Assembly: GCA_964414345.1 (NCBI GenBank)
Contig: CAYPWF010000009.1
Coordinates: 5,321 to 69,320 of the forward strand
DNA length: 64,000 nt
Direction: 5' to 3'
From: an uncultured Desulfarculaceae bacterium
GTDB lineage: Bacteria; Desulfobacterota; Desulfocorpusculales; Desulfocorpusculum
The notes below the pieces were generated by a model, which saw only the letters and a list, made by a program, of their open reading frames with translations, ran no database searches and had not been told where the DNA came from. The position numbers and the translations under genes are program-made. Shown piece after piece: positions 10,950 to 63,253 of this stretch (position 1 is its first letter; each line of letters starts with the position of its first letter).

Positions 10950-11142
10950 TTGCCCAAGATTATTCACCAGTAGTGGATAGTGCGGGCTATCATAATGACA
11001 TGCTTGGGCAAACCGTTCCATGCTCAAAAAAACCCTGATTCTTGGTTTCAGCTTTGCTCCTGGTTTGAGTCGAAATATGCCAAAGCTTGAGCAGGGGCTT
11101 GAGCCCATAAAGTCACAGGCTTTGGAGAATAATCCGGGCTAG
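10950..11142 (+). mobile_element. Family-1 MITE-like repeat, copy A
   Basis: Homologous to copies at 28998, 45531, 48185, 53296, 54714; ends TGCCCAAGATTATTC ... GAATAATCCGGGCTAG are imperfect inverted repeats. Confidence 0.75.
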
Positions 11143-23283: not shown

Positions 23284-23460
23284 TTGGGGGGGTGACGGCC
23301 CACCCAGCAATGAATTATTCTATCCAAATGGGCTTGCCCCTCTCCTTTGGCCCAAACGAGCCTTTGACAGGTCATGGGAGTTGGGAGGCGGAACTCCCCA
23401 TGGATCAGCTCATGGTCTTTGATGGCTGGCGCCTTGGGGGGTTGCGTTTTGAGGGTAGTT

Positions 23461-23670
23461 GGTCACGGGGGTGATGGCATTTCTCTTTGCTTCAAGCCCT
23501 CGGCGCTTGATTTTCCAAAGGATTTGGTCTCCGGGGGATATTTGCCCCCTCCCTCGGTCGCCCTCAGCTTAGCTTCGGGCCAGAGGGTTTCCCCCAGGTC
23601 CAAATACTGGAAAATCAAAGCGGATCTGCCAAGCCGCTCCGAGAAACGGAATCATCCTGTGATCGCTTAC
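23461..23670 (+). repeat. Family-2 long-hairpin repeat, full copy 1
   Basis: Ungapped match to the reverse complement of 39601-39810, 190/210 by hand count; nested inverted repeats. Confidence 0.85.
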
Positions 23671-23763
23671 CTTTGAGGTGTAGAGAAACCGATTATATTT
23701 GGCTTGCGGGGGAAACCCGCCTTTAGGTTTTTTTTCATTCCAAGCCAAGGAGATCGTTTTTTT

Positions 23764-25494
23764 ATGTGGCCTTTTTCCAGAACAGACCTTGTGTTACTTC
23801 ATCCCCCTAGTGTCTATGATTTCAGAGACCATCCCATAATGTTCGGCCCTATAAGCGACGTTATCCCCTCTACGGCCATCTTTGAGATGTATCCAGTTGG
23901 ATTCACGGCCATGGCCGAGTACTTGGGCCGTAGCGGCTTTAGGGTCAGGATCATCAATTTGGCTCTTCGGATGCTCAAGAGCCCAAGCTATAACCCGGAG
24001 GCCGTGATCAAGGCTCTTAGGCCTTTGGCCTTTGGTATAGATCTTCACTGGCTCCCCCACGTGCAGGGAAGCCTGAAGGTGGCTTCCATATGTAAAAAGC
24101 ATCATCCGGGGATACCGGTCATAATGGGAGGGTTCTCCTCCTCTTACTTTTTTATGGAACTTCTTCAAAGGCCCGAGGTTGACTATGTGCTCAGGGGGGA
24201 TTCCACCGAGGAGCCTCTACGCATGCTTATGGAGGCTATTTCCCAAGGACGCACCAAAGACCTATTCCATGTTCCCAACCTGGCCTGGAGGACTCGGCAC
24301 GGAAAAATAGTGGGGAATCCCATCTCCCACCTGCCCCAGGTACTGGACCATTATGTAGACAACTATGGATCCATGATGAGATCCGCCATACGTTACCTAG
24401 ACATCAAGAGTATGCTTCCCATACACGACTGGTGGTCCTATCCCATCACCGCGGTCATGACATGCAGGGGATGCGTCCATTCCTGTTCTTTTTGCGGGGG
24501 AAGCCGCTATGGTCTTAGGATCTTCGGCCAGAGAAGTAAGCCTGCTTTCCGTCCTCCTGACTTGGTAGTACAGGACATACGTAAGATATCAGGGTTTACC
24601 TCAGCGCCTATCTTCGTGGTGGGGGACCTGCGTCAGGCAGGAGAGGATTACGCCCGGCAGGTCTTGGAGGGATTGGAACCTCTAAGGGTCCCCAACCAGG
24701 TGGTGATCGAGCTTTTCGGCAAAGCCCCCCTGTCCTACTTTAAGAAATTGGCCCAGGCTGTACCAAACTTCAATCTGGAGATGTCCCCGGAAAGTCACGA
24801 GCTTGAGGTGCGGGCAGCCAGCGGCAAGCATTACACCAATCAGGAGCTGGAAGAAACAATTCAAGCAGCCCTGGATGCAGGTTGCCGCAAGTTTGATCTT
24901 TTCTTCATGATCGGTCTGCCGAAACAAACCTTTGAATCTGTGCTGGCCACAGTGGATTACTGCGAAGCTTTGCTCAAACGATTCGGGCCTAGGCTTGTGC
25001 CTTTCATTTCTCCTCTTGCACCTTTCATAGATCCTGCAAGCCCGATATTCGAAGAGCCGGAACGATTCGGGTACAAGTTGTTTTTCAAGACATTGGAGGA
25101 GTTTGAAAAGGCCCTGCTTCAGCCCAGCTGGAAATATGCCCTCTCTTACGAGACCAAATGGATGTCCAGAGACCAGATAGTGGAGGCCACTTACGAGGCA
25201 GCTCTAAGACTAAACCGCATCAAAGCCCGCTTTGGTCTTCTTGAGCTTCCCACCTCGCGCAAGGTTGAGGAACGCATCTTGCTGGCCCGCAGGCTCATCA
25301 AGCAGATAGACGAGTGCCTCTTGCTCCCCGAGGCTCAGAGAAGAAAGGCTCTGGATAGAATGAAGCAGGAGATACAAGAGGCAAATTCCGACACTCTTTG
25401 CGAGGCAAGGGAAATCCAGTGGCCCTCCCCCAAGAACTTTCACTTCATGGGCATAGCCAAGAACCTGCTTCGCAGGTCCGGAAAAGGAACCTGA
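23764..25494 (+). CDS. B12-binding radical SAM protein (resembles TIGR04190/Ta0216 family)
   Basis: LLHPPSVYDFR...STAIFEMYPVGF, GIDLHWLPH, CVHSCSFCGG (CxxxCxxC), SPESH, FFMIGLP; ATG at 23764. Confidence 0.88.
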   Translation: MWPFSRTDLVLLHPPSVYDFRDHPIMFGPISDVIPSTAIFEMYPVGFTAMAEYLGRSGFRVRIINLALRMLKSPSYNPEAVIKALRPLAFGIDLHWLPHVQGSLKVASICKKHHPGIPVIMGGFSSSYFFMELLQRPEVDYVLRGDSTEEPLRMLMEAISQGRTKDLFHVPNLAWRTRHGKIVGNPISHLPQVLDHYVDNYGSMMRSAIRYLDIKSMLPIHDWWSYPITAVMTCRGCVHSCSFCGGSRYGLRIFGQRSKPAFRPPDLVVQDIRKISGFTSAPIFVVGDLRQAGEDYARQVLEGLEPLRVPNQVVIELFGKAPLSYFKKLAQAVPNFNLEMSPESHELEVRAASGKHYTNQELEETIQAALDAGCRKFDLFFMIGLPKQTFESVLATVDYCEALLKRFGPRLVPFISPLAPFIDPASPIFEEPERFGYKLFFKTLEEFEKALLQPSWKYALSYETKWMSRDQIVEATYEAALRLNRIKARFGLLELPTSRKVEERILLARRLIKQIDECLLLPEAQRRKALDRMKQEIQEANSDTLCEAREIQWPSPKNFHFMGIAKNLLRRSGKGT

Positions 25495-25529
25495 AACAGC
25501 TGGATCCGGGCAACCCCGCAAGAGGCGTC

Positions 25530-25769
25530 TCAGCCCCCTGCTATGGGTGGAAATATGCTCACCCTGTCGCCTTCCTGGAGGAGCTGTTCCTTGGGGGCGT
25601 GAACACCGTTTACCAAAACTATCTTGGGGTCGCTGGGGGGTATACCGAGTTTCTCGATGAGATCTTGGAGAGTGAATCCCTCAGGCACATCCATCTGCAC
25701 CCCTGGCTGGCCCTGAGTCGGGAGGTATTCTCTGAGATGCCCGAAGAGCCTAAGCTCCACCTTAGGCAT
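25530..25769 (-). CDS. MoaD/ThiS-family sulfur carrier with canonical C-terminal GG
   Basis: LFGHLRE, VLVNG, GDRVSIFPPIAGG-stop. Confidence 0.93.
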   Translation of the reverse strand: MPKVELRLFGHLREYLPTQGQPGVQMDVPEGFTLQDLIEKLGIPPSDPKIVLVNGVHAPKEQLLQEGDRVSIFPPIAGG

Positions 25770-26100
25770 CAGATGCCCCCTTTTTCTCTCCTCTGGAAGC
25801 CTCTCTGGCCAAAACCCGCTCTTTTCTAAAAGAAAGCGACACAAAAGTGTTGAAAGAAAGCTCCGGCGGGAATATGGCCACCCTATCTCCGGGCCCCAGA
25901 ACCGTCTCAGGGGTGGATCCCTTCCCATTTACCAATATCAGCTTGGCCCGGCTCTGGGCCAGACCAAGCCTTTCCAAAAGTCCGGTCACACTGAGGGGGC
26001 CCTTTACCTCCAGCATCAGCTCCCCTTGCGCAACACCCAGCTCTTCCCGCAAGTGCCCTCCCACCAACACCCTTATGCTCCCGGAGCCGTCTTGCTTCAT
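25762..26100 (-). CDS. MoaD/ThiS-like paralog lacking GG, with ~33-aa C-terminal extension
   Basis: GHLRE, LLERLG, ILVNG, GDRVAIFPP, then ELSFNTFVSLSFRKER...; overlaps both neighbouring genes. Confidence 0.8.
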   Translation of the reverse strand: MKQDGSGSIRVLVGGHLREELGVAQGELMLEVKGPLSVTGLLERLGLAQSRAKLILVNGKGSTPETVLGPGDRVAIFPPELSFNTFVSLSFRKERVLAREASRGEKKGASDA

Positions 26101-26888
26101 AGAAGCCCCTTACAGTATCCACCGTCTATGGCTATAGAGGCCCCTGTGATGTAGCTTGCCCTTTCAGAGGCCAAAAAGGCCACCAGGTCTGCCAGTTCCT
26201 CTGGTTTTCCCAGTCTTCCCATGGGAATCTGAGACTCCCATCCCCGCATGATCTCGGATGCAGTGGTCCCTTTGCTGGCAGCCAGAGACTTGGCCAGCTC
26301 CTCCACACGTTCCGTCAGCATGAAGCCAGTGCAAACACAGTTCACCAGTATCCCTTCGGCTGCAAGCTCGTTGGAAAGGCTCTTGGCCCATCCATGCACC
26401 CCCGCTCTAATGGAGTTGGACAGGATGAGCCCCTCTATGGGCTGCTTGACTGCTGCCGAGGTGAGATTGATGATGCGTCCCCAGCCTTGTTTTCGCATGT
26501 ATGGAAGAACCAGCCGAGTGAGTCTTATGGCGCTCATGAGATTGAGCTGGAAGGCATTCTCCCAGCTATCCTCTTTCAGATCCAGGAACCTGGCCGAAGG
26601 CGGGCCTCCGGCGTTGTTCACCAGGATATGGACGCTCTGGAACCTCTCCACGGCCTCTTCCACAAAGGCCTTTACATCTTGGGGATTGGAGAGGTCTGTG
26701 GCTTTCCACCAAAGCTGGGTTCCTGTCTCCTGAGAGATGGCAAGGGCCGTTTTTTCCAAGAGCTCTGCGTTTCTGGCACATATGCCCACCTTTGCCCCTT
26801 CACGGGCCAGGCTGCGTGCAACTTCCCGACCCAGGCCCTTGCTGGCCCCCGCCACCAGAGCCACTTTGCCTTTCAAACCAAGATCCAC
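26097..26888 (-). CDS. Atypical short-chain dehydrogenase/reductase
   Basis: AGASKGLG, LVNNAGG, PMGRLGKPEE, YITG..IAIDGG; SNSIR in place of YxxxK. Confidence 0.9.
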   Translation of the reverse strand: MDLGLKGKVALVAGASKGLGREVARSLAREGAKVGICARNAELLEKTALAISQETGTQLWWKATDLSNPQDVKAFVEEAVERFQSVHILVNNAGGPPSARFLDLKEDSWENAFQLNLMSAIRLTRLVLPYMRKQGWGRIINLTSAAVKQPIEGLILSNSIRAGVHGWAKSLSNELAAEGILVNCVCTGFMLTERVEELAKSLAASKGTTASEIMRGWESQIPMGRLGKPEELADLVAFLASERASYITGASIAIDGGYCKGLL

Positions 26889-26931
26889 CGAAAACCTCCC
26901 TTGAGCGCCTGTCCTTAAGTTTTCAAGCCTT

Positions 26932-26957
26932 AAAGAAGGGGGCCGCAGCCCCCCTCC
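26932..26957 (-). terminator. Possible weak terminator/hairpin between aor and the SDR gene
   Basis: Minus strand GAGGGGGG-CTGCGG-CCCCCTTC followed by a short TTTA. Confidence 0.35.
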
Positions 26958-26981
26958 TGCAGGAGCCTCTCAACTGGAACC

Positions 26982-28718
26982 TCAAAAATTGAAAATCTGG
27001 TCCAACTCCTTTGCCGGGACGTCAAACACCACATTGTGGGGAGGCAAAGGCTCCTTCTGGAAGAACTCCGGCAGGCGATCCTGCAATGCCGTAAACCCTG
27101 CGGCCAGATTGAAAGAGCGCTCCTTCCTCAGCACTCTCTTGCCGTACTCCAGAAGGTCCTCCATGCCAAAGCTCCATCCGTACTGGGCGCCCACCATTTT
27201 GGGAAGCGCCTCCATTCCAGAGGGTATATCCATTATGGCGAAAGCCACAAACACGCACAGGCCTAGGGAGTCTATGGCTGCAGTGGCGATCTGGAGGTTG
27301 CGGGAGAGATCCACCTGCCCTTCGGGCTTCAGCGGGTCCACGAACCCGCCCACCTTCATTATGTTTGTAGCCACTGCATAACCTGCTGTGTGATCCGCTC
27401 CCATGGGGCTTGTGGCGTAGGTCACCCCGATCCCCTTGATAGCCCTCGGGTCATAGGCTGGGAGCCCCTGGCGTTTTACCACAGGCACATGAGACACCCC
27501 GAAGGCCTGCCCCACCACCGCAGCCCCACTTCCTATAATGCGTCCCAGGGCAGTACCCTTTCCCACCTCCTGGAGGAGCTCTATGGCTCCCTGGGCATCC
27601 CCGAACCTCTTCACCCCAGCATACATGGCCACCCCGATGGCGCAGCCCATCTCGATGGTGTCCAGGCCGTACTCGTCGCAAAGCCTGTCTATCTGGGCTA
27701 TGGCGTCCAAATCGTCTATCCCGCAGTTGGCCCCATTGGCCCAGATGGTCTCGTACTCAAAGCCAGAGGTAAGGTACTTGCCCTCCTTATCGTTGTACAC
27801 GTTGGAGCATTGGATTATGCAAGTCGAGCAGGCAGAGTGAGTAGTGCTGCCCCCCCTGGCCTTTATGACATCGTGCATGGTCTCACCGCTGATCTTATGG
27901 GTCCCCTCGAACCTGCCCTCTGTAAAGTTCCTGGTGGGGTAGGCCCCAGCTTCATTTATTACATTTGCCAGGATGTTAGTCCCGTACACCGCAAGTCCCC
28001 CTCCGGGCTTGGTCACCGGGTGCTCCCTGAGGGCGTCCCTGAAGGCGGCAGCCGCGGCCTTGAAGGCCTCCTGGTCCGCGTAGGAAACCCCTGGGGCTTC
28101 GGTGTCATCCACCACAATGGCCTTGAGCCCCTTGGAGCCCATTACCGCCCCCATGCCTCCCCGCCCTGCATGCCGCGCAGGCTTCCCTTGGGTGCTGGTC
28201 ACAGCCACCGAGGCGGCCGAAAGCTTCATCTCGCCAGCAGGCCCAATGGAAACTATGCCCACTTTCTCCCCGTATTTGGCCTGAAGTTTTTCGCAAAGAG
28301 CATAATTGGTGAGCCCGGCTAGGTCACCCCCCTCAAGCAGCTTTCCCCCCTCCTTGTTCACCAAGAGGTAATACCACTTACCGCTTTTGGGAAGGCCCTC
28401 TACCACTATCCCGGCAATCCCCAGCCTGCCCAACTTCACAGCAACGTTCCCCCCCACGTTGCTCTCTTTGATGCCTCCCGTGAGCGGACTTTTCCCACCC
28501 ACTGAAAGCCTCCCCGAGTTGGGACAGGTGCTCCCTGCCAGGAGACCGGGTGCCACCACCAGCTTGTTGGCCGCCCCAAGGGGATGGCACAATGGGTCCA
28601 CCTCTTTGGCCACGATGGAGGAGGTCAAGGCTCGCCCCCCCAGCCGAGCCTCTTCTCCTGAGAGATCCTCCATCCGCACCGCCCCGGCCGACATGTCCAC
28701 CCTCATCAGCTTTCTCAT
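26982..28718 (-). CDS. aor: Tungsten-type aldehyde:ferredoxin oxidoreductase family protein
   Basis: KSPLTGGIKESN, GRGGMGAVMGSKGLKAI, CSTCIIQC, EYETIW, CDEYGLDTIEMG, YDPR, GADHT. Confidence 0.93.
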   Translation of the reverse strand: MRKLMRVDMSAGAVRMEDLSGEEARLGGRALTSSIVAKEVDPLCHPLGAANKLVVAPGLLAGSTCPNSGRLSVGGKSPLTGGIKESNVGGNVAVKLGRLGIAGIVVEGLPKSGKWYYLLVNKEGGKLLEGGDLAGLTNYALCEKLQAKYGEKVGIVSIGPAGEMKLSAASVAVTSTQGKPARHAGRGGMGAVMGSKGLKAIVVDDTEAPGVSYADQEAFKAAAAAFRDALREHPVTKPGGGLAVYGTNILANVINEAGAYPTRNFTEGRFEGTHKISGETMHDVIKARGGSTTHSACSTCIIQCSNVYNDKEGKYLTSGFEYETIWANGANCGIDDLDAIAQIDRLCDEYGLDTIEMGCAIGVAMYAGVKRFGDAQGAIELLQEVGKGTALGRIIGSGAAVVGQAFGVSHVPVVKRQGLPAYDPRAIKGIGVTYATSPMGADHTAGYAVATNIMKVGGFVDPLKPEGQVDLSRNLQIATAAIDSLGLCVFVAFAIMDIPSGMEALPKMVGAQYGWSFGMEDLLEYGKRVLRKERSFNLAAGFTALQDRLPEFFQKEPLPPHNVVFDVPAKELDQIFNF

Positions 28719-28997
28719 GGCAAACCTCCTGTTTGTGGGATGAGAAAAAGCGGGTGCAAGCGGGCCAATGAATGAAACCAGCTCCGCCTAAGCTTCTGGC
28801 ACAAGAATAGAGACAGCTCACTTCAAAAGTCAAGCCGCTTGGGATGACAAATTGAGCTCGGCTTCGGCTTAACAAGTCGTTTTATGCTGGAAAAAACATA
28901 ATTTCTTCTTTTCATGCTTGGTGTCTTCAAGGCAAAGGATAGAATTGTTGCAAAATTTATGGGCTTACCTTTGTTTATGGATGATCTATTTAACGAT

Positions 28998-29195
28998 TAG
29001 CACGTATTATTCACGAGTAATGGATGATGCAGGCTATCTTAATGACATATCTGGAGAAATCGGTCCATGCTCAAAAGCAGCCTGCTTTTGGGTTCCAGAG
29101 TTTATATTGCTTTGAGTCGGAATATGTCGAAGTGCACCGGGGGCTGGGGGGCTTGAGCCCCCAAAGTCAGCGGCTTTGGAGAATATCCTGGTTAG
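28998..29195 (+). mobile_element. Family-1 MITE-like repeat, copy B
   Basis: TAGCACGTATTATTCACGAG...GCAGGCTATC...GGGGGCTTGAGCCCCCAAAGTC...GGCTTTGGAGAATATCCTGGTTAG. Confidence 0.75.
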
Positions 29196-29219
29196 CTGTG
29201 TCAGTGGTGAGCTTGACTC

Positions 29220-30509
29220 TTATTTTTCCAAACGAAGATGCACAGAGTTGGCGTGAGCAAAAAGGCCTTCCAGCCTGGCCATTCGCAGAGCGTGAGGTCC
29301 AAGAAGGTTCATGCCGGCCTGGGAGATGCCCACTATGCTCGTTCGTTTCAAGAAATCCTCGACTCCAAGAGGGGATGAGAACCTGGCCGTGCCCCCTGTG
29401 GGCAACACGTGGCTCGGACCTGCCAGATAGTCTCCCATGGCCTCCGGGGAGCCTGCCCCCAGGAAAACCGCCCCTGCGTTTTTAACCATGCAAAGCCAAT
29501 CCAGCGGCCTTTCCACCAAAAGCTCCAGATGTTCAGGGGCCACCTCGGCCGCCACCGCAAAAGCCTCTTCCATGTCCCGGCAAACCAATATGGCTCCGTA
29601 ATTCTCCAGGGAACACCTCGCTATGCTCTCACGCGGGCTCTGTGCAAGTTGGATCTCCAAGCTTGCCTCCACCTCCTCTGCATAGCCCCCCGAGGGTGTC
29701 ACCAGCAAGGCCGAGGCCGATTCATCATGCTCTGCTTGGGAGAGCATGTCCGCAGCCGCCAGCTCTGCCCGTACGGTGCCATCTGCCAGGATAAGCACCT
29801 CACTGGGCCCTGCCAGCATGTCTATGTCCACCTCCCCGAAAAGCATCCGCTTTGCCTCTGTAACATACGCATTTCCAGGCCCTACTATCTTATCCACCCT
29901 AGGGATCTCTCCTACTCCATATGCCATGGCCCCAACGGCCTGCGGCCCGCCCAGCCTAAAGACCCGATCCACCCCGGCTATTCTGGCGGCTGCCAGAACT
30001 GCAGGGCTGGGGTTACTCCAAGCAAGGGGGGAACACATAATCACTTCCTTGACTCCTGCCACCCGGGCAGGAATGGCTGTCATGAGCACTGAGGAGGGGT
30101 ATTGAGCCTTCCCCCCAGGAACGTAGATACCCACCCTCTCCAGGGGCTGTACCAACTGTCCAAGCAGACAGCCTTGTGAATCCACCGTGAGCCATGATCT
30201 GAGCAAACAGTGGAGGTGGAACTCCCTGATCCTCTCGGCAGCAATCTCCAGAGCCCTTCTTTCTTCTTCAGGGAGAAGCCCTTGGGCCCTATCCCACTCT
30301 TCGGCATGCACCTCCAGGCTTTCCGCTTGCTCGGGCATTCCATCCAGAAGGCGAACCCAACTCAGAAGTCTTTCCTTTCCTCCAAGACGCAGGCTCTCCA
30401 GGATCTCTTGCACCCTAAGGCCCACCTCCCTATCCCTGGAGCCTCCCCTTTGCCGCAAGCTCTTCAAGAATTCTTCCCAAGAAAGATCCTTGCTACTGAT
30501 ACGCCTCAT
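29220..30509 (-). CDS. hisD: Histidinol dehydrogenase
   Basis: GIYVPGGKAQYPSSVLM, KIVGPGNAYV, IDMLAGPSEV, QAEHD, APEHLEL, GPSHVLPT. Confidence 0.97.
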   Translation of the reverse strand: MRRISSKDLSWEEFLKSLRQRGGSRDREVGLRVQEILESLRLGGKERLLSWVRLLDGMPEQAESLEVHAEEWDRAQGLLPEEERRALEIAAERIREFHLHCLLRSWLTVDSQGCLLGQLVQPLERVGIYVPGGKAQYPSSVLMTAIPARVAGVKEVIMCSPLAWSNPSPAVLAAARIAGVDRVFRLGGPQAVGAMAYGVGEIPRVDKIVGPGNAYVTEAKRMLFGEVDIDMLAGPSEVLILADGTVRAELAAADMLSQAEHDESASALLVTPSGGYAEEVEASLEIQLAQSPRESIARCSLENYGAILVCRDMEEAFAVAAEVAPEHLELLVERPLDWLCMVKNAGAVFLGAGSPEAMGDYLAGPSHVLPTGGTARFSSPLGVEDFLKRTSIVGISQAGMNLLGPHALRMARLEGLFAHANSVHLRLEK

Positions 30510-31888
30510 GTGCTCTCCTCAACAGACTGCTCCGGGCCCGCATTAGACCTGCGACCCGGTATCTGGATGGAGTATTTCCTTATCTTGTAATGGAGCACTC
30601 TTCTTGAGACCCCCAAGAGTTTTGCTGCGTCTTTTTGAATCCAGTTGGCCCGTTCCAGGGCCTCCATGATCAGCTTCCTCTCGCCTCCTTCCAGGGAGAG
30701 AGGGGGCTTTTTTGTAACTTCAGGAAGCCCTGCGCCACTTTGGATCACTCCCGCTGCTGAAAGGTCCTTAACAGTCAAAAGCCCGCCTCTGCAAACCACT
30801 ACACCCGCCTCCAGGGTATTGCGAAGCTCGCGGACATTCCCAGGCCATGGATATGCAAGCAACCATTCCATAGTCTCCCTGGGGATGGAAACCCGGGTCT
30901 TGCCATGCTTTTGGCAGAATCGCTCCACAAAACGCTCGGCCAACTCCGGGATGTCCTCGGGCCTATCCCTCAGGGGGGGCACCCTGAGAATTACCACCCT
31001 GAGACGATAGTACAGATCTTCCCTGAAGCGTCCTTCCTCAACCTCTCGGGCCAGATCCACGTTGGTGGCTGCAATCACCCTGCAGTCCACCGAAACCTCT
31101 CTTATGTCTCCTATCCTACGAATCTTTCTTTCTTCCAGGAAACGCAAGAGCCGCACTTGCATCTCTTGGGAGATGTTCCCAATTTCATCCAAAAACAAAG
31201 TCCCGCCGTTGGCGGCTTCTATCAGTCCCTTCCTATCCCTGATGGCATGGGTGAAGGAGCCGCGAACATGCCCGAACAGCTCGCTTTCTAGTAGGCTGGC
31301 CGGAGTGGACCCGCAGTCCACCACCACAAAGGGGCCTTGGGATCTGGGGCTTTGTTTATGGATGAACTTGGCCACAAGTTCCTTGCCCACGCCGCTTTCC
31401 CCTAAGATGAGAAGACTGACATCTGTACGACTCACCCTCTCCATCAAGGACCAAAGCTCCCTCATGGCAGCACTACTGCCGATCCAAAACTCCTCCGGCC
31501 CCTCTGAAGAACCTGGAGTCTTGGAGTGATCACCCAGCGCTGCATCTATGGTCCTGAGAAGTTGTCTGCCGTCAAAGGGCTTGGTCAGATACTCAACAGC
31601 CCCTGCCTTTATGGCTCTGACCGCATCAGGGATGGTTCCATATGCGGTCAAAAGAATCACTGGGAGATCCGGGCAGACCTTCCTTAGTGCCTCCAGGAGT
31701 TCCATGCCCCCCATTCCAGGCATTCTCACATCGGTTATGACAAGATCCACTTTCCTTCGCTTGAGTAACTCAAGAGCCGAAGACGCCGAAGAGCTCTGCA
31801 AGGTCTCATGCCCTGCAGCACCCAGGCGAGCCTCAAGCACTTCCAGTATGTGCGGATCGTCGTCCACAAGCAGAATAACGCTGCCCAT
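30506..31888 (-). CDS. NtrC-family sigma54-dependent response regulator (GlrR/QseF-like)
   Basis: Receiver (LVDDD, ITD), AAA+ (GESGVGKE, ESELFGH, LFLDEI, DLYYRL, WPGNVREL), Fis-type HTH; GAFTGA loop reads GSFTHA. Confidence 0.93.
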   Translation of the reverse strand: MGSVILLVDDDPHILEVLEARLGAAGHETLQSSSASSALELLKRRKVDLVITDVRMPGMGGMELLEALRKVCPDLPVILLTAYGTIPDAVRAIKAGAVEYLTKPFDGRQLLRTIDAALGDHSKTPGSSEGPEEFWIGSSAAMRELWSLMERVSRTDVSLLILGESGVGKELVAKFIHKQSPRSQGPFVVVDCGSTPASLLESELFGHVRGSFTHAIRDRKGLIEAANGGTLFLDEIGNISQEMQVRLLRFLEERKIRRIGDIREVSVDCRVIAATNVDLAREVEEGRFREDLYYRLRVVILRVPPLRDRPEDIPELAERFVERFCQKHGKTRVSIPRETMEWLLAYPWPGNVRELRNTLEAGVVVCRGGLLTVKDLSAAGVIQSGAGLPEVTKKPPLSLEGGERKLIMEALERANWIQKDAAKLLGVSRRVLHYKIRKYSIQIPGRRSNAGPEQSVEEST

Positions 31889-32086
31889 GTTCAGAATTCT
31901 CTCCAGCTTCCTGAGCTCGGATTACTCTTTCTTCCCGCTCGTTCTGTGGGCTATACCCCTCAAACTTCCAAATCCCAAGAGCTTTAAGCCCTCTTGAGCT
32001 TTGCTAGGTTGCCAACACAGCCCCTTCCTGCATTAGGCGAGCCGCCCGACAATGGGCTTTCCCTATCCTCGCATTTGAGTTGAGGG

Positions 32087-32749
32087 CTAAGGGCCAGCAG
32101 CACCCTTTTTCTTTTTCTCGATGTCGCGATGTATGTTCTCCAAGGCCTCTATCTGCTCCCGCAGCCTCTCTATCTCTTCGTCGCGCAACCTTATCTCCTC
32201 TTCCTTCTGACGTATTTCCTCTTCCTTTGAGGAGGCCTGCTTGCCTGATGAGGCGGGAGGTGGGGAGGGCCTTCTGCTTTTTGTCTCCCCGGATGGAGCC
32301 CAACTCACAAGTTTTCTCAAGATCTGGGTGAGCATCCTAGGGTCTTCATTTCCAAACTCCCCGCTTACCCGCTCCTGCCACTTTTCCCACAAGGCTAAAG
32401 CCTCTTGAAAAGAGTTCTTGTCCGTAGCCATTGCCAAACGACTGCATGCCAGCCCGTACAAGGCCTTTCTCTTTCCCTCTTCAGATGAGAGACTTTCGCT
32501 CAAAAAGCTAAAAATCTCAGCGGCTCTGGACAAATCCCCCTGCTGGAAAGCAATGGCCCCTGTCTCCAAAGAGGGAATTGAAGCGGCTGACTTACGACTT
32601 TCCTCTACCACACTTTTTACTGTGCGGACCTCGGAGGGCTCCAAAGTCTCCGAGACAAACACACAGCTTGTCCAAGAAAACAGTGCGCTGGAAAGAACTC
32701 CGCACAACCATACCCACTTGATCAACCCTCTTGGCTCTCTGTGGATCAT
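32087..32749 (-). CDS. Putative lipoprotein with C-terminal coiled coil (QseG/YfhG-like)
   Basis: Signal peptide ending WTSC, helical TPR-like core, tail LREQIEALENIHRDI; lies between the kinase and regulator. Confidence 0.7.
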   Translation of the reverse strand: MIHREPRGLIKWVWLCGVLSSALFSWTSCVFVSETLEPSEVRTVKSVVEESRKSAASIPSLETGAIAFQQGDLSRAAEIFSFLSESLSSEEGKRKALYGLACSRLAMATDKNSFQEALALWEKWQERVSGEFGNEDPRMLTQILRKLVSWAPSGETKSRRPSPPPASSGKQASSKEEEIRQKEEEIRLRDEEIERLREQIEALENIHRDIEKKKKGAAGP

Positions 32750-32755
32750 CCCCCC

Positions 32756-34183
32756 TCACCTTGCCCGCGGGACCGTGAAATAAAAACAACTGCCTTCTCC
32801 TGGCCTGCTCTTAAGGCCCATGCTTCCGCCATGGGCCTCCACTATGTGTCTGGAGATACTGAGCCCCAATCCCATACCCTCCTGAACCCCTGGCCCACCG
32901 GCGATGCGGTAATACTTCTGAAAAACCATGGACTGCTCCTCCTCAGGAATGCCTGGGCCCTTGTCCTCCACACTGAAATGAACCCAGCGACCCTCCCCAT
33001 CCATCTGGGCCTTGATCAAGACCTCCTGACCTGCCGGAGAGAATTTAACGGCATTGGCCAACAGATTCAGTATCACCTGTTGAAGCTGTGCCTCGTCGGC
33101 CAGAACCGGAGGCAATCCCGGAGTCACAACCGCTCTGATCTTGACGCCGGCAGGCTCTGCCAAAGGTTGTGCTTTCCTAAGGCAGCCCCCTATGAGGCGA
33201 GTCACATCCACCGGCCTCTGTTTCAGTTCCACCTTTCCGGCTTCCATACGCGAGACGCGCATGAGCTGTGTCAGGAGTTCCGTAACCCGGCCCATTTCCT
33301 CTCTGGCGATGCGTAATAAACGCTTTTGCCTCTCATTTATGGAACCCGCCACCTCTTCTTCCACCAAATTCACCGACTCGGCTATGGAGGTCAAAGGGGT
33401 CCTTATCTCATGGCTTAGCATTGCAATAAAATCAGAGCGCATCCTCTCTTCTTGCCTGAGTCGGTCAGCCATTTCGTTGAATGCACAAGCCACCTCCCCC
33501 AGTTCATCCCTTGAGCTGACTTCAAGGGACTCAATGGGCCCGGTATGCAGAACCGAGCGTATACCCCTTTTCAAAGCCTTCAAAGGGCGACTCACCGAGT
33601 AGGTAAGAAGGATCAGTCCCACCAGCCCTGCCGCAGCAGAACCCACCACTCCAATGAGCCCCCACCTTTGGGCAGCCATGTTGGAGGCCTGCAGCTCACG
33701 CAACTCCAGCTCCATTTTCAGCTGGTTCTCTGTCCTGGCCTCCGTGATCTTGCTCATCAGAGCCCCTGCCAGCTCTTCCGGAAGCCAGCTTTCCCCATTG
33801 CGAAGACTCTCACGGAAGGCTGCCACTCCAAGGGATACTCTGTTGAAATCACCCCTTAGGGAATCCCAATCACCTTTCTCACCCAACTCAGCCTGAATTG
33901 ATTCCAATTCTTCCAAGGCCTTCAGAAAAGAATGCCTGGAGTCCTCAAAGAGTTTCGCATACTCCTGCTTTTTCAGGAGCCTGTATTTCTTCTCATTCTC
34001 CTCCATGGAAAGCAGGCTCTCCAGAAGCCTACCACAGAGGGAGTGAACCCGATATCTAGCATTAACTATCCGGTCAGTGGCCTTTCCTGCCCTGTGAAGC
34101 TGAAAAAAAAGCACTCCCACCGTTACATAAAAAACGGTCAGCAGGATCAAGTACCATAGCAGGAACCTGCCGCGGATGCTCAT
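32756..34183 (-). CDS. HAMP-domain sensor histidine kinase (GlrK/QseE-like)
   Basis: Two TM segments, HAMP (DELGEVACAFNEMA), H-box SHEIRTPL, N-box NLLANAVKF, DKGPGI, GMGLGL. Confidence 0.93.
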   Translation of the reverse strand: MSIRGRFLLWYLILLTVFYVTVGVLFFQLHRAGKATDRIVNARYRVHSLCGRLLESLLSMEENEKKYRLLKKQEYAKLFEDSRHSFLKALEELESIQAELGEKGDWDSLRGDFNRVSLGVAAFRESLRNGESWLPEELAGALMSKITEARTENQLKMELELRELQASNMAAQRWGLIGVVGSAAAGLVGLILLTYSVSRPLKALKRGIRSVLHTGPIESLEVSSRDELGEVACAFNEMADRLRQEERMRSDFIAMLSHEIRTPLTSIAESVNLVEEEVAGSINERQKRLLRIAREEMGRVTELLTQLMRVSRMEAGKVELKQRPVDVTRLIGGCLRKAQPLAEPAGVKIRAVVTPGLPPVLADEAQLQQVILNLLANAVKFSPAGQEVLIKAQMDGEGRWVHFSVEDKGPGIPEEEQSMVFQKYYRIAGGPGVQEGMGLGLSISRHIVEAHGGSMGLKSRPGEGSCFYFTVPRAR

Positions 34184-34361
34184 GGAAGGAGCCGCTATCT
34201 CCTCTTGGGGTCAGACTTAACCCCCATTATTGCCCTAAAAGGGATTGGCGCGGGGGCTGCACCCCCCCCCACCCGGCATATTTGGCCACATTCTGGCTCA
34301 GCCGCTGGTGGGACCTGGAACGCAAACTCAGAGTGTCTTGGACCATGAGTCATGGAATCCC

Positions 34362-34370
34362 ATTATATCA
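34362..34370 (-). promoter_or_regulatory. Extended -10 promoter element upstream of the kinase operon
   Basis: TGATATAAT on the minus strand. Confidence 0.4.
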
Positions 34371-34423
34371 ACAGGTTAGCCTGCATTGAGCATTCCCCTT
34401 GAAAAATGCAATTTGGCCGCTTC

Positions 34424-35677
34424 TCAACTTTGAACCCTGCAAATATCAGCACCTAGAGCAGAAAGTTTTTGCTCCAAGCGCTCATAACCGCGGTCCAAAT
34501 GGTAAACCCTTGAGATCTCGGTGGTTCCCTCGGCGGCCAAGCCGGCCAGGATCAAAGAGGCGCTTGCCCTCAGGTCTGTAGCCATTACTGGAGCTCCTTT
34601 GAGACGAGCAACACCCTTTACCACTGCGTTGGCCCCCTGCAGCTGGATTTGCGCCCCCATCCTGCGCAGCTCCGCCACATGCATGAATCTGTCCTCAAAT
34701 ACGGTCTCTGTGATGACACTGGTTCCCCTGGCCAGAGCCAGCAAGGCCATGATCTGAGCCTGCATGTCTGTGGGAAACCCAGGATAAGGTCTTGTCTTTA
34801 CATCCACTGCCTCCGGCCTACCCTTGGCCGAAACCAGCACCAAATCCTTCTTTACCGCAAAATGTACTCCACTCTCTTTAAGTTTACCCACAACAGCTTC
34901 CATACTGGAAAGAGGGCACTCCCTCAAAAAGACCTCCCCCCTGGTTATGGCTGCGGCCACCATGAAGGTGCCTGCTTCTATTCTATCCGGACCCACTCGG
35001 TGATCCATGGGGCCCAGTTCCTCCACTCCCTGAATTAGGATCTGATCAGTACCTGCTCCCTGGATCTTGGCGCCCATGCGGTTTAGGGCCTGAGCCAGTT
35101 CCACCACTTCTGGCTCGCACGCGGCATTGCGAAGCAAGGTTTCTCCGCGGGCAAGGGAGGCCGCCATCATAAGATTTTCCGTCCCGGTCACAGTTGGAAG
35201 ATCAAAGCAAAAAGAGGTGCCTTGCAGTCCTTTGCTCCTGGAGTATACATAGCCGTGTCTTAGTTCAATTCGGGCCCCTAGGGCTTCCAGCCCCTTGAGG
35301 TGCTGGTCTATGGGCCTTGTCCCAATGGCGCAACCTCCTGGTAGAGAAACGATTGCCCTACCGGTGCGGGCCAAAAGGGGCCCCAAGACCAACACCGAGG
35401 CCCTCATGGTCTTAACCAGCTCATAGGGTGCCTTGCAGCTGCGAATCCTCTCGGCGTTTACTAAAACCTCCTCACCGCTGATCTCCACCTCAGGCCCGAG
35501 CTGTTCTATCAAAGACTTGAAGGTGTCAATATCCCGAAGTCTGGGTACATTGGTGAGCCGATGAGGTCCTGGGCTAAGAAGAGTGGCTGCCAGCAAGGGA
35601 AGTGCCGCGTTTTTCGCTCCGCTTATGCGCACTTCCCCCTGCAATGCTCTTCCCCCTCTTATAAGAATGCGGAACAT
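34424..35677 (-). CDS. murA: UDP-N-acetylglucosamine 1-carboxyvinyltransferase
   Basis: [55 protein letters not shown]; start at MFRILIRGG. Confidence 0.97.
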
Positions 35678-35682
35678 TCTCC

Positions 35683-36573
35683 TCACACCTCTCGAGTGAC
35701 AGCCCATAGAGCTCGGAGCCTACCCCCGAGATCTTGGCGCCATCCCCATTTTCCCCATCTGGAGTCTTTGCCTAAGATCTCATCCAGGAGCTCGGACTGT
35801 GCTTCACCAACTTCCATAACCAGCATGCCTCCGGGAACCAGTCTGCAGGGAGCCTGCTCAATAATCCTTCGGATCAGTGCCAGGCCGTCATGGCCCCCAT
35901 CCAAGGCCAAAGCGGGCTCGTAGCAGCGTATTTCGGGCTCCAACTGCTGGATCAAGGCAGTGGGGATATAAGGTGGGTTGGAAATCACCAGCCTGAACCT
36001 GCGCTGATCTGGTTCCAGAGCTTCCCACATATCTCCCTGTAAGAATTTGATCCAGCCTTGCACCCCCAGCTGGCGGGCATTCCACCTTGCCACTTCCAAA
36101 GCTTCCCTGGAGATGTCGGTCGCCCACCATGACACAGAAGCTCCAAGCTCCCTGGCCAGGGCTATGGCAATGGCTCCAGATCCAGTGCCCAGCTCCAAGG
36201 CAGAGATGGGCAAGGACTCTTTTCTGACCGCTTTCTTGAGTTCCTCCAGGGCCACCTCCACAATGGTCTCGGTTTCGGGCCTGGGGATCAATACACTGGG
36301 GCTCACCCTTAAGCTCAAGGACCAGAACTCTTTAGCTCCCAGTATGTAAGCCAGAGGCTCCCTCCTTGCTCTTCGCCGAAGCAGCTCCCGGAAGCGATCC
36401 AGCTCTTGCTTTGTCAAGGGTTGATCAAAACGAAGATATAGCTCCACCCGGCTGCAGCCCAGCACACAGGCCATCAGGAGCTCTGTATCCAGTCTAGGGC
36501 TGGAAACCCCTTTTTTGGCCAGATATGCCGAGGCCTCCCTTATCAGCTCCAGGAGGGTCCAGGAAGGCTTCAT
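35683..36573 (-). CDS. prmC: Release factor glutamine methyltransferase
   Basis: [42 protein letters not shown]. Confidence 0.96.
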
Positions 36574-37646
36574 CCCCCACCGGCCCCCTCCCTGAAAGCT
36601 TCCGCCCTTTGGTGGGTTTGAAGAGCGTCTATCAGCTCATCCAAGGCACCATCCAAGATCTCCGGGAGTCGATAAAGGGTAAGGCCTATTCGGTGGTCTG
36701 TAACCCTTCCTTGAGGGAAGTTGTAAGTGCGAATCCGCTCACTTCTGTCTCCCGAGCCCACCTGCATTCGCCTTTGCTCGGAAATCTCTTTTCTTTGTTG
36801 CTCTAAGATGCGGTCCAATAGACGGGCTTTTAGAACCCTTAGGGCCTTGGCCCTGTTCTTGTGTTGGGATTTCTCATCCTGACAAGTGACCACCAGGCCT
36901 GTGGGTATATGGGTGACCCTTACTGCCGAGTCAGTGGTGTTCACACTCTGGCCCCCTGGTCCTGAAGAGCGAAACACATCTACGCGCAGCTCGGCCGGCT
37001 CCAGGTGCACCTCCACATCCTCGGCCTCAGGCAAAATAGCCACGGTCACGGCAGAGGTGTGAATGCGCCCCTGTGACTCGGTAACAGGTACCCTTTGCAC
37101 TCGATGAACTCCGCTTTCATACTTGAGTCTACTGTACACGCCCCGGCCTTCCACCAAGGCTATTATTTCCTTGAGACCGCCCACTCCGGTGGGATGGCTG
37201 TCCACCACATCTACTTTCCAGCCCTGACGCTCGGCATAGCGGCAGTACATCCTGAAGAGGTCGGCAGCGAACAGGGCAGCCTCCTCACCTCCGGTTCCAG
37301 CCCGTATTTCCAGGGACACGTTCTTTTCGTCATGGGGGTCCTTGGGTACAAGCAAACCCCTGAGCCTGACCTCTAGCTCTTGCTGTTTGTGGGCCAGCTG
37401 GGCGACCTCATCCTCTGCCAGGGCTCTCATCTCGGGATCTTTCTCTGTGCGAAGAAGAGCTCTGGCAGCCTTCAGTTGCTCCACCACCCTGTTGTGGGCC
37501 CTGTATGCCTCTACCAAGGGGACCAACTCGGACAGCTCCTTGGCCAGCTTTTGGAACCGGGATGGATCTTTGGCCACCTCAGGATCCCCGAGCTGCTGCT
37601 CAATGGCCCGGTATCTCTGTTCTACAGCAGCCAGTTTCGCCCACAT
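36570..37646 (-). CDS. prfA: Peptide chain release factor 1
   Basis: [20 protein letters not shown] (PxT), [21 protein letters not shown]. Confidence 0.97.
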
Positions 37647-37735
37647 GTTCTAGGATTCCCTTCGGATACAGAATAGGCTCCCAAGCCCTTGGGGCTGGGG
37701 TCTTGCATCGTACCCTGGGCTCTCTGTTCGGCCCT

Positions 37736-37954
37736 TTATTTGCTGCTGTTCAGATAGCCTTTCCCGAACTTCTTGTGAAACCGTTCCACCCGACCAGCAG
37801 AATCCACCAACTTTTGTTTCCCGGTAAAAAATGGGTGGCACTTGGAGCAGATCTCCACCCTTATCTCCGACTTGGTGCTTCTGGTCTCTATAACATTCCC
37901 ACAAGCGCATGTTATGACGGCCTTGTCATACTTTGGATGAATTCCCTTCTTCAT
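37736..37954 (-). CDS. rpmE: 50S ribosomal protein L31 (zinc-binding type)
   Basis: [32 protein letters not shown]. Confidence 0.96.
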
Positions 37955-38174
37955 GGGTTTCTCCTTTCCAGTCTCCAAAAAAATTCCCAGGACTCTCTCA
38001 TCCTTCTCCTCAATCACCCTCTGCCCGCTTGTCTCAAACTCCTCTTAAAGCTCAAATCTTCCAGCTCCACGCTGTTAAGATTGCCCAACTATAAGTTTTG
38101 CCCCTGGTTTCTCTCCCTTGGGACTCCCCATCATCTCTCTTATGAGACAGGCTAGGATCGCAGCCCTTATCTTA

Positions 38175-39422
38175 TCAGGAGCTCATGGAATCCAGGAATT
38201 CCCTGTTGGTCTTTGTTTTCTGTATCTTGTCCAGCAAGAACTCCATGGCATCAACCGGATTCAGGGGAGAAAGCAGCTTTCTCAGTATCCAGATGCGATT
38301 TAGGTCCTCCTTTGGAAGCAGCAACTCCTCTTTGCGAGTTCCAGACTTGTTGATATCGATGGATGGGAATATCCTTTTGTCTGCCAAACGCCTGTCCAAC
38401 TGGATCTCCATGTTCCCGGTGCCCTTGAATTCTTCAAAAATAACTTCGTCCATTCGGCTTCCGGTGTCTATAAGGGCGGTGGCTATGATGGTCAGGCTGC
38501 CGCCTTCTTCCACATTGCGTGCAGCCCCAAAAAACCTCTTGGGTCTTTGCAGGGCATTGGCGTCCACACCGCCTGAAAGGATCTTTCCGCTGGGCGGGAC
38601 CACGGTGTTGTGAGCCCTTGCCAATCTGGTTATACTGTCCAGCAATATTACCACGTCCTTCTTGTGTTCCACGAGTCTCTTGGCTTTTTCCAGGACCATG
38701 TCCGCCACTTGGACATGGCGCTGAGCCGGCTCGTCAAAAGTGGAGCTTATCACTTCGGCATCCACTGAGCGCATCATATCTGTTACCTCTTCAGGCCTTT
38801 CATCTATCAAAAGGACTATGAGGATTATCTCCTTGTGATTTTGGGTTATGCTGTTGGCGATGTTCTGAAGTAGAATTGTCTTGCCTGTCCGGGGGGCTGC
38901 AACTATCAGTCCTCTTTGCCCTTTTCCGATGGGGCACAGCATGTCCATTATGCGCATTGAAACCTGGTCGTGGCTGGTCTCGAGTTTTATCCGTTCCTGA
39001 GGGTAAAGAGGGGTCAGATTGTCAAAAAGAATCTTGTCCCTGGCAACTTCAGGATCTTCGTAATTAACAGCTTCCACCTTGAGCAAAGCAAAGTATCTTT
39101 CCGAGTCCTTAGGAGGCCTTATCTGACCTGAGACTGTGTCTCCTGTTCTGAGGTTGAATCTACGGATCTGGGAAGGAGACACATAGATGTCGTCAGGCCC
39201 CGGCAGATAGCTGTAATCCGAGGAGCGCAGAAATCCGAATCCATCAGGGAGAATCTCCAACACACCCTCCCCGTAAATAAAACCGTTCTTCTCTGTCTGG
39301 GCTTGCAAGATAGCGAATATCAATTCCTGCTTGCGCATCCCGCTGGCCCCTTCTACCTGCAGCTTTTTGGCTAGATCCAACAACTCCGAAATCCTTTTCT
39401 CCTTTAACTCAACCAGATTCAT
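38175..39422 (-). CDS. rho: Transcription termination factor Rho
   Basis: [61 protein letters not shown]; start at MNLVELK (39455 also possible). Confidence 0.98.
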
Positions 39423-39600
39423 CTTCGCCCTCTTCGATTCTCGGTTTTGGGTCATGTGCCTGTTTCTTCTCCCTGGTTCCTAAAGGGTCATGGGGGTCCC
39501 TTCACACCCCGACCCTAGGCTTCCCCCCCCAGAGGCCCCCTTTTTCACCTTGCAGGGAAGGATTCTATGTTGGGCTCCCGCTCCGGCGGCTTTTAACTTC

Positions 39601-39810
39601 GTAATCGATCCCAGGGTGATGGCGTTTCTCGGAGCGGCTTGGCGGAGGCGCTTTGATTTTCCAGGATTTGGACCTGGGGGAAACCCTCTCGCCCGAAGCC
39701 AAGCTGAGGGCGACCGAGGGAGGGGGCAAGTATCCCCCGGTGGCCAAATCCTTTGGCAAATCAAGCGCCGAAGACTTGAAGCGGAGAGAAATGCCGTCAC
39801 CCCCGTGACC
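39601..39810 (-). repeat. Family-2 long-hairpin repeat, full copy 2, inside the rho leader
   Basis: 190/210 identical to 23461-23670; terminal arms GGGTGATGGCGTTTCTC / GAGAAATGCCGTCACCC. Confidence 0.85.
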
Positions 39811-39992
39811 AGCTTTAACTTCATACCAGGTTCTCCTCCCAGAAAGCTGAAGCTCTCGAGTCCTTCTGCAGAGGCTTCCAAATGGATCTTTGTGGGTGAG
39901 CATCTAACCTGAATGGTGCACTCTCTGGGAGACGAATCCTTAAGAGACGATACTTATCCTACCTTAGGCAGGTTGAATACAAGAACACCTCT

Positions 39993-40021
39993 AAGCTATC
40001 GGATAAGTTCCCGCCTGTCAA
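39993..40021 (-). promoter_or_regulatory. Putative sigma70 promoter of rho
   Basis: TTGACA-N17-TAGCTT on the minus strand. Confidence 0.6.
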
Positions 40022-45530: not shown

Positions 45531-45704
45531 CGCCCGAGATTCTGTGCCGGATGCCCAAGCCCCTGATACGCTTTGGGGTATCCCCACCAATACCAGGGGC
45601 GAATCTGAAACCCAAGATAAGGGTCTTGCTCAAAAGGACCTATTTATCTCAACATGCCATCCAGATAACCTGCATTATCAACTGCTCGTGAGTAATGTGC
45701 GCCA
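45531..45704 (-). mobile_element. Family-1 MITE-like repeat, copy D (partly deleted), between the two permease genes
   Basis: Reverse complement reads ATTACTCACGAGCAGTTGATAATGCAGGTTATCT...CCTTATCTTGGGTTTCAGATT...GGGATACCCCAAAGCGTATC. Confidence 0.7.
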
Positions 45705-47959: not shown

Positions 47960-48184
47960 CTGCCGCCTCCTTGAAATTGAATGGGGCACCGAACCCGCTG
48001 AATGTCCTTTTTCCAAGAACACCATCTGGGCGGTCTTGTCCAAGGGCGGGCAAGGACAAGAAAACAAAACTCTCGCTGCCAACCCAAGACTTCCTTACAG
48101 GGCCTGATATGATCCATGGCTTCAAGGATGGGGCTTACTTTACCTGTGGAATCATATTTGTGTCAAGGCAAAATCCAAGACACC

Positions 48185-48372
48185 GGCCCGGATTGTTCCC
48201 CAAAGCCTGTGACTTTGGGGGCTCAAGCCCCCAAACCCCCGATACGCTTTGGGGTATCCCTACTCATGCCAAAGCCAAATCTGCAACCCAAGATAAGGGT
48301 CTTTCTTGGCAGGAACCCCTTTATCCCAACACATAATCTAGATAGCCTGCATCATCCACTGATCGTGAAAAA
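48185..48372 (-). mobile_element. Family-1 MITE-like repeat, copy E
   Basis: GCCCGGATTGTTCCCCAAAGCCTGTGACTTTGGGGGCTCAAGCCCCC...GATAGCCTGCATCATCCACTGATCGTGAA. Confidence 0.75.
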
Positions 48373-48405
48373 GCCTCCAGGGAATCCCTTGGGGTTTGTA
48401 GAGGA

Positions 48406-54713: not shown

Positions 54714-54824
54714 TTAACCTGTAATGTTCCCGATCAGTGGATAGTGCTGGCCAAACAAAGCGTGAGCGGGGGTCGGGGAGCTTGAACCCCAAGAGTTACA
54801 GGCTTTCGAGAATAGTCCGGGCTA
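54714..54824 (+). mobile_element. Family-1 repeat, internally deleted copy F
   Basis: 5' end (TTAACCTGTAATGTTCCCGATCAGTGGATAGTGC) fused to 3' end (GGCTTTCGAGAATAGTCCGGGCTA). Confidence 0.65.
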
Positions 54825-54836
54825 AACACAGAAGAA

Positions 54837-54913
54837 GCATCCCCCCAGAGGCCCAATCCTTTGGAAAATCGAGCGGCGAAGACTTGAAGCGAAGAGAAAA
54901 TGCCATTACCCCG
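54837..54913 (-). repeat. Family-2 repeat, truncated copy (first ~80 nt)
   Basis: Reverse complement GGGGTAATGGCATTTTCTCTTCGCTTCAAGTCTTCGCCGCTCGATTTTCCAAAGGATTGGG matches the 5' arm. Confidence 0.75.
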
Positions 54914-63235: not shown

Positions 63236-63253
63236 CTCCCATTTGACAGGATC

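Follow-up and report, generated by a model that had tools for sequence, protein, structure and literature searches.

A near-palindromic 216-bp repeat of an uncultured Desulfarculaceae bacterium is very probably a miniature inverted-repeat transposable element

What is the rod-like repeat that stands beside rho and two other genes in the genome of an uncultured, sulfate-reducer-type Desulfarculaceae bacterium? A stretch of 64,000 nucleotides (GenBank assembly GCA_964414345.1, contig CAYPWF010000009.1, positions 5,321 to 69,320 of the forward strand; hereafter the window) contains three copies of a repeat family that folds as one long hairpin, and an initial annotation proposed it to be a novel noncoding RNA (ncRNA), always co-oriented with transcription, or else a palindromic element. 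Our analysis indicates that the element is, very probably, a miniature inverted-repeat transposable element (MITE), i.e. a 216-bp non-coding, near-palindromic, non-autonomous DNA transposon mobilised in trans, most likely by an IS66-family transposase, and that its two full copies in the window are recent insertions. The suggestion of a palindromic mobile repeat of the ERIC or Rickettsia type was close to the truth, while the transcription-oriented ncRNA is not borne out. We regard the family as ordinary selfish DNA whose copies presumably serve no host function, and place it, within uncultured Thermodesulfobacteriota, as a new family of MITEs, a known kind of element, and not as a new RNA gene. 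It leaves existing knowledge of how such elements work unchanged, and an IS66-derived MITE with this sequence is not described in the subset of the open-access literature that was consulted.

The repeat unit, its 8-bp duplications and its empty sites

When the copies and their flanks are lined up, the true unit proves to be 216 bp long in the window, with a range of 211-220 bp over the family as a whole. Its 5′ terminus reads G(T/C)A(A/G)(C/T)TGGTCAC and its 3′ terminus GTGATC(A/G)CTTAC. The two termini are imperfect inverted copies of each other (GTAGTTGGTCAC.../...GTGATCGCTTAC); specifically, GTAACTGGTCAC agrees with the reverse complement of the 3′ end, GTAAGTGATCAC, at 10/12 positions. The initial annotation had correctly seen that homology runs on for about 10 bp past the inverted ends it recognised, which is explained by the real terminal inverted repeat lying there, with true termini 6 bp (5′) and ~10 bp (3′) outside those stems. 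It had taken such ends to be atypical for a MITE, which is wrong: with the real termini, the element has terminal inverted repeats, 8-bp duplications and clean empty sites.

Two of the window copies are full length. Copy 1 (23455..23670, + strand) spans 216 bp with termini GTAGTTGGTCAC and GTGATCGCTTAC, matches positions 2-216 of an nhmmer profile built from four copies (256.5 bits), and lies between an ABC-F gene (21016-22992) and a B12/radical-SAM gene (ATG at 23764), ending 93 nt before the ATG. Copy 2 (39601..39816, − strand) occupies the 5′ leader of rho, with genes for a YfiH-like protein and Rho around it, and matches the same model positions (258.9 bits). The GT with which its terminus should begin has been lost or replaced, the end reading AAAGCTGGTCAC, and the element proper is probably 39601-39814. 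Copy 3 (54835..54912, − strand; model positions 14-89, 55.8 bits) consists of the 5′ arm only, with a degraded outer terminus, and follows the glyQ stop codon by 55 nt in the same sense; a repeat search of the window places it at 54842-54899 with 86-88% identity. The same search returns copies 1 and 2 as an inverted pair with arms 23457-23670 and 39601-39814 (214 nt, 90% complementary). A direct count over 23461-23670 and the reverse complement of 39601-39810 gives 190/210 identical positions without gaps, the very figure that had been counted by hand, and 193/216 over the full unit. The third fragment and the gene contexts of all three copies, namely upstream of the radical-SAM ATG, between a promoter-like block and the rho start, and after glyQ, had also been described correctly.

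The family extends well beyond the window. A genome scan with a conserved internal pattern found four contigs, all from a single uncultured Desulfarculaceae metagenome-assembled genome (MAG), with 3/4 matches at contig ends, and a metagenome scan with this pattern found 95 stretches; many of the hits lie at the ends of contigs. The profile search with nhmmer yielded 149 non-overlapping matches, of which 66 are full length, spread over ~100 public contigs that belong to several metagenomes and one MAG. Forward matches score ~250 bits and reverse matches ~50 bits; therefore, the unit is an imperfect palindrome with a definable orientation. A blastn comparison of the element with 72,556 plasmids gave no match, nor did a scan of viral contigs for the terminal 24-mer. 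Copies of the family explain contig breaks in MAGs of this lineage.

The unit also varies internally. Some copies have an internal deletion that brings them to ~130 bp, and others (L015, L019, L036, L081-L084, L001, L025 and L028 among them) contain additional hairpin modules of 27-34 nt in their interior, one or two per copy, namely CCTGTCTGCGTGCGACGCACAGGCAGG, placed after model position ~85, and CCCTGCCTGCGCCAAGCAGGGCGCGGCAGGCAGG, placed near position ~175; none occurs in the window. These are subfamily modules; an independent REP-like mobile family was considered and rejected, as 33/35 and 13/13 of their occurrences lie inside MITE copies.

Direct repeats of 8 bp bracket the unit, and the octamer varies by copy (e.g. 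GGATTTTT, GAGAAGAC, CATCAGGT and CCATTTCC). Among 56 non-redundant full copies, the flanking octamers are identical at 8/8 positions in 22 and at 7/8 in 14 (36/56 together), and several of the poor scores reflect register shifts of 1-2 bp. In the window, copy 1 is flanked by TTTTGAGG on the left (23447..23454, + strand) and CTTTGAGG on the right (23671..23678, + strand), a 7/8 match. Copy 2 is flanked, in element sense, by GAAGTTAA on the left (39815..39822, − strand), which overlaps model positions 1-2, and by GAAGTTAA on the right (39593..39600, − strand).

Both loci of the full copies are empty in close relatives. In the rho leader, the element is present upstream of rho in one further contig (L100), which encodes an identical Rho, and is absent from the orthologous leader where Rho is 99% (L107/L108), 97% (L101-103) or 93% (L104-106) identical. 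The empty site in L107/L108 reads CTGGCAC-GAATTCAA-GGTCGG..GGGAGCCCAA, with GGTCGGCTGAGTGGGAGCCCAA after the octamer and a single GAATTCAA in L107, and the occupied window site reads CTGGTAT-GAAGTTAA-(element)-GAAGTTAA-AAGCCG..GGGAGCCCAA, with AAGCCGCCGGAGCGGGAGCCCAA after the right octamer. Likewise, the element is absent from the orthologous radical-SAM site in L112/L113 (protein 97% identical), where CTTGTG-CTTTGAGG-TATAGAGAAACC, with a single CTTTGAGG in L113, corresponds to GTTGCG-TTTTGAGG-(216 bp)-CTTTGAGG-TGTAGAGAAACC in the window, and the intergenic region of the relative is shorter than that of the window by 227 bp. The contig of this relative carries the same repeat family at another locus (L011); therefore, the two have the family in common but differ in where it is inserted. 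The full copies of the window, that behind the ABC-F gene as well as that in the rho leader, are recent lineage-specific insertion polymorphisms, and such polymorphisms can serve as markers that separate very close strains.

IS66-type insertion sequences with matching ends

A published account of IS66-family insertion sequences (ISs) (PMC11946415, citing Ross et al. 2021) names as hallmarks of the family direct repeats of 8 bp together with an end that starts GTAAGCG. The MITE begins with GTAACT or GTAGTT at its 5′ end. The reverse complement of its 3′ end is GTAAGCGATCACAGG in window copy 1 and GTAAGCGATCACAGGGTGATGG for the window-type end; by subfamily it is GTAAGTGATCAC in subfamily A and GTAAGCGATCAC in subfamily B.

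A candidate partner was reached through a MITE copy that is itself interrupted by an IS end. Specifically, the copy in L076 breaks off at model position 82, where it gives way to another end, GTAAATGGTCACAGGGGTC (also given as GTAAATGGTCACAGGGG), behind which an open reading frame (ORF) matches DDE_Tnp_IS66 (PF03050, E = 4.7e-19). Homologues of this ORF led to L110, from the same assembly as the 99% relative, which contains a complete 1605-bp IS with ends GTAAGCATTCACGGGGGTA and GTAACCGTTCACGGGGGTA and one 483-aa ORF comprising DUF6444, zf-IS66 and DDE_Tnp_IS66. L110 also contains a second, truncated IS66-type copy, whose right end, GCAGTTGGTCACGGGGGTCGTG, equals the window-type MITE 5′ terminus at 17/18 positions (20/25), compared with 14/18 for the next-best 18-mer in ~24 kb (both strands of L109-L111). 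The IS66-type ORFs of L110 match PF03050 with E = 6.6e-24 and 5.5e-31. A further IS66-type transposase gene (PF03050, E = 1.1e-19) with the end GTAACCGTTCACGGGGGTATGG is found in L109, from the same sample as the window's genotype, and the probable left end in L111, GTGCGCGATCACAGGGTAG, resembles the MITE 3′ end at 15/18 positions; L111 was considered as a possible full IS and set aside, as its right end could not be identified. IS66-type ends that match the MITE termini are GCAGTTGGTCACGGGGGTC, GTAAATGGTCACAGGGGTC and GTAACCGTTCACGGGGGTA, and three further IS66-type ISs of the same populations have in common the end motif GTAAnnnnTCAC(G/A)GGGGT.

The candidate partner ISs are ~1.6 kb long, with one ORF for zf-IS66 and DDE_Tnp_IS66 and ends that match the MITE termini. 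This single-ORF architecture presumably places them in the ISBst12-like subgroup of the IS66 family, whose members are 1.35-1.9 kb long and have one ORF, GTAA ends and 8-9 bp repeats. Ends beginning GTAA(GCG) and an 8-bp direct repeat are features that the MITE has in common with IS66 ISs (PMC11946415). Unlike IS66 ISs, the element has no transposase gene and an unrelated interior, and only ~18-25 terminal bp are held in common. The assignment of the partner is well supported, albeit not proven.

We propose the following mechanism. A DDE transposase supplied in trans would cut at the terminal inverted repeats, 5'-GTA[A/G][C/T]TGGTCACGGGGG... and ...CCCTGTGATC[A/G]CTTAC-3', would excise or copy the element, and would insert it via a staggered 8-bp cut, the repair of which would leave the element between 8-bp direct duplications. 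The most likely source of the transposase is a single-ORF IS66-family IS of the same bacterial populations. Copy 3 is a decayed copy carrying a nested second repeat. The MITE and its probable IS66-type partner make a clean pair that appears to be active in these uncultured Thermodesulfobacteriota and includes nested insertions of a second family.

Copies of the MITE and of IS66-type elements adjoin the C-terminal ends of tyrosine-recombinase genes that are integron-integrase-like (...LGH..TTMIY...) at L076 1310-1561 and L110 1-86; the gene in L110 appears to be cut by the IS. An integron attC site was accordingly considered, with integrase-like genes ending near L076 and L110, and was rejected by size, by the 8-bp duplications and by the IS66-type ends.

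Hairpin fold, gene orientation and alternative readings

The long nested rod described in the initial annotation is real, and its stems appear in the minimum free energy (MFE) fold. The MFE values of the two full copies are -93 (z = -3.0) and -100.4 kcal/mol (z = -4.3) relative to dinucleotide shuffles. The opposite strand of copy 1 gives -87 kcal/mol (z = -3.4), and the reverse strand is the more stable one in 36/43 copies (mean -109.8 kcal/mol, vs -104.1 kcal/mol for the forward strand). Across 43 distinct full copies, the 82-pair rod is 94.7% paired at a mean column identity of 90%, and 7 pairs change on both sides, compared with a shuffle mean of 6.8. Compensated cells number 52 vs 21.6 in shuffles, the excess coming from four subfamily-marker pairs (columns 25/208 AU<->GC, 26/207 CG<->UA, 114/132 GC<->CG, and 92/141) and few evolutionary events. 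Of these four pairs, two sit in the transposase-binding ends, in which a change in one arm has to be matched in the other. The two deeper ones reveal some constraint on the palindrome, or else correction between its arms, and fit an RNA form and a DNA form alike. The rod-like hairpin itself exists because the two arms are inverted copies of each other and does not represent a dedicated RNA structure.

A bolder reading of the compensated pairs is that the full-length hairpin, and not just its transposase-binding ends, is under selection, with the folded form needed as single-stranded DNA in IS66-type transposition or as RNA; sense insertions would then be RNA-level regulators of essential genes. 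We judge this quite unlikely. If true, it would make insertions such as the rho-leader copy new regulators at the RNA level, of Rho autoregulation for example.

A very improbable alternative to a MITE is a structured ncRNA or cis-regulatory leader hairpin, transcribed with the neighbouring gene and acting as RNA in the manner of 6S RNA, an RNase III substrate or a stability element. The very stable rod (z = -3 to -4.3), the high pairing across copies with its four pairs compensated between subfamilies, and the co-orientation of all three window copies with the adjacent gene are in accordance with such a role. Against it, copies between co-directional genes are oriented sense in 17 cases and antisense in 14 (p = 0.72), and another 12 copies lie between divergent genes and 11 between convergent ones; these counts come from a crude longest-ORF heuristic on the fetched contigs and include the two window copies and one locus twice. 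The co-orientation that had been described as invariable is therefore a small-sample coincidence among three window copies. Furthermore, the strand that would not be transcribed as the proposed RNA generally folds better, covarying pairs are at shuffle expectation, and both loci are empty in close relatives. Rfam at gathering threshold reports only a cobalamin riboswitch in the whole window and nothing on the element, and permissive E-values for both copies and four loci with copies yield noise of 12-18 bits against cut-offs of 44-200, with no match to 6S RNA (RF00013), which the initial annotation had seen as a likeness. Scans for promoter and terminator consensus around copies 1 and 2 find none in or at the element, with counts near shuffle expectation. 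The balanced orientation went against the ncRNA proposal on a point on which it had been staked, and pairs changing on both sides did not outnumber those of the control. Equally, a coding role for the repeat, be it for a small protein or for a protein module, can be practically dismissed. ORFs at 23374-23676(+) and 39565-39903(-) do cross both full window copies in the same register and frame, but neither has a Pfam match, indels among copies are of 1, 2 and 5 nt and not divisible by three, no frame is stop-free in more than 20/43 copies, and the substitutions between copies 1 and 2 look neutral (~6 synonymous of ~20, hand count), so that this reading was rejected. Annotation of these genomes should mask the ~220-bp blocks as MITE rather than retain them as small ORFs, several of which (100-140 aa) cross them, or as ncRNA candidates.

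Two other readings keep the element mobile. A different transposase that also makes 8-bp duplications might move the MITE, since such duplications are also made by other IS families (IS1595, ISL3, IS256, IS6 and IS1). Here lie most of the points that weigh against the MITE/IS66 reading as a whole: no intact autonomous IS was recovered whose two ends match both MITE ends, and the fetched loci, which had been selected with a MITE-internal pattern, contain no end pairs at the 1-3 kb spacing of an intact parent IS; the best-matching IS, the second copy in L110, is truncated, limiting the comparison to its right end; and the likeness to IS ends stops after ~18-25 bp. To these are added the crude gene calls behind the orientation test and the four subfamily-compensated stem positions, which reveal that the palindrome is under some constraint outside the transposase-binding ends as well. 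Nevertheless, a non-IS66 transposase is decidedly unlikely, given the 17/18 identity to the end of an element encoding DDE_Tnp_IS66, the end motif common to three further IS66-type ISs of the same populations, and the combination of a GTAAGCG end with an 8-bp duplication, which is the IS66 signature (PMC11946415).

The last reading, compatible with a MITE, is that the rho-leader copy has been co-opted and alters Rho autoregulation or mRNA stability; we consider this unlikely. In well-studied bacteria, Rho controls its own gene through Rho-dependent attenuation in the leader, and the stability of an mRNA can be altered by the hairpins of MITEs, ERIC and Correia elements among them. Copy 2 is very probably transcribed, given its place between a conserved promoter-like block (TTGACA-N17-TAGCTT, 40021-39991), from which it lies ~175 nt downstream, and the rho start (39455), 145 nt further on. 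It is kept in the second contig of the same genotype, L100, and, lacking the terminal GT at its 5′ terminus, it may no longer move. On the other side, the relative with a 99% identical Rho does without copy 2, which is thus not needed, and the same argument could be made for any intergenic MITE insertion. Judged from its position, the rho-leader copy is the only one with a plausible side effect, in that it could affect rho expression. The recent insertion offers a natural with/without comparison for rho regulation, which is the sole point of wider interest.

The leader itself deserves a brief description. At ~39890-40021 (− strand), the TTGACA-N17-TAGCTT block and ~130 nt are conserved in relatives down to 93% Rho identity, with the core ...CCTGCC.AGGGTAGGA...TCTCCCAGAGAG.GCACC..., and the remaining intergenic region diverges. 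This conserved block upstream of copy 2 has no Rfam match and may be a rho autoregulatory leader element. The rho ORF (38175-39455, − strand) gives 426 aa from its first ATG, and most database relatives start 11 codons downstream (415 aa); therefore, the true start is uncertain by 33 nt.

Known relatives and neighbouring features

Among known systems, the closest in kind are IS-derived bacterial MITEs such as MITEPsy1/ISPsy2 of Pseudomonas syringae (PMC3189936). Like these, the present element is short (100-230 bp class) and non-coding, has terminal inverted repeats matching those of a resident IS and a target duplication of fixed length, and occurs in many dispersed, mostly intergenic copies with presumed mobilisation in trans. 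It differs from MITEPsy1 in sequence, in host phylum (Thermodesulfobacteriota) and in its parent, which would be of IS66 type with an 8-bp duplication rather than of IS5 type with 4 bp. In addition, the whole 216 bp forms one near-perfect hairpin and not the ends alone, and mobility is read from empty sites rather than from experimental trapping.

ERIC, Correia (NEMIS) and Rickettsia palindromic elements are imperfect palindromes of 100-200 bp that form long hairpins as RNA or DNA. They are scattered through intergenic regions irrespective of orientation, and those transcribed along with a gene can affect how the mRNA is processed. The present family is likewise a hairpin-forming intergenic repeat; the hosts differ, and no sequence relationship was seen, Correia elements not having been compared by sequence. 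Correia elements duplicate TA and have Neisseria-type ends, Rickettsia palindromic elements insert in frame into ORFs, and ERIC is ~127 bp long and enterobacterial. Unlike Correia elements, the present one duplicates 8 bp of variable sequence and has IS66-type ends. With 6S RNA it has in common a length of ~200 nt and a rod with an internal bubble, and it differs by being multi-copy, mobile, present in both orientations and missing from the same loci in close relatives, in addition to the negative Rfam result.

The remainder of copy 3 is replaced or interrupted by a sequence (54756..54824, − strand) that resembles a second repeat family, presumably the Family 1 of the initial annotation, in which the MITE family was Family 2. 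This sequence aligns with Family 1 copies at 48150-48400 and 28990-29200 and also with an insert in L090, after which Family 2 resumes, indicating that Family 1 is nested inside Family 2. The junction of the 5′ arm with Family 1 is identical in copy 3, L068, L075 and L090; either Family 1 is mobile and prefers a target within Family 2, or the two travel together as a composite. The dispersed second family is ~180-210 bp long with 72-91% identity between copies, and was found in the window at 10959-11139, 29006-29183, 45554-45679, 48186-48372 and 53321-53450, in addition to 54756-54824(-).

Two further structured features lie in the window. A terminator-like hairpin, GCGGGGGAAACCCGC, followed by a T-run (23706-23735, + strand) separates copy 1 from the radical-SAM ATG at 23764 and is kept in the empty-site relative; therefore, copy 1 belongs to the tail of the ABC-F unit and not to the radical-SAM leader. 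The cobalamin riboswitch lies at 63026-63242 (− strand) and matches its model over the full length with 85.5 bits, against a gathering score of 31.5.

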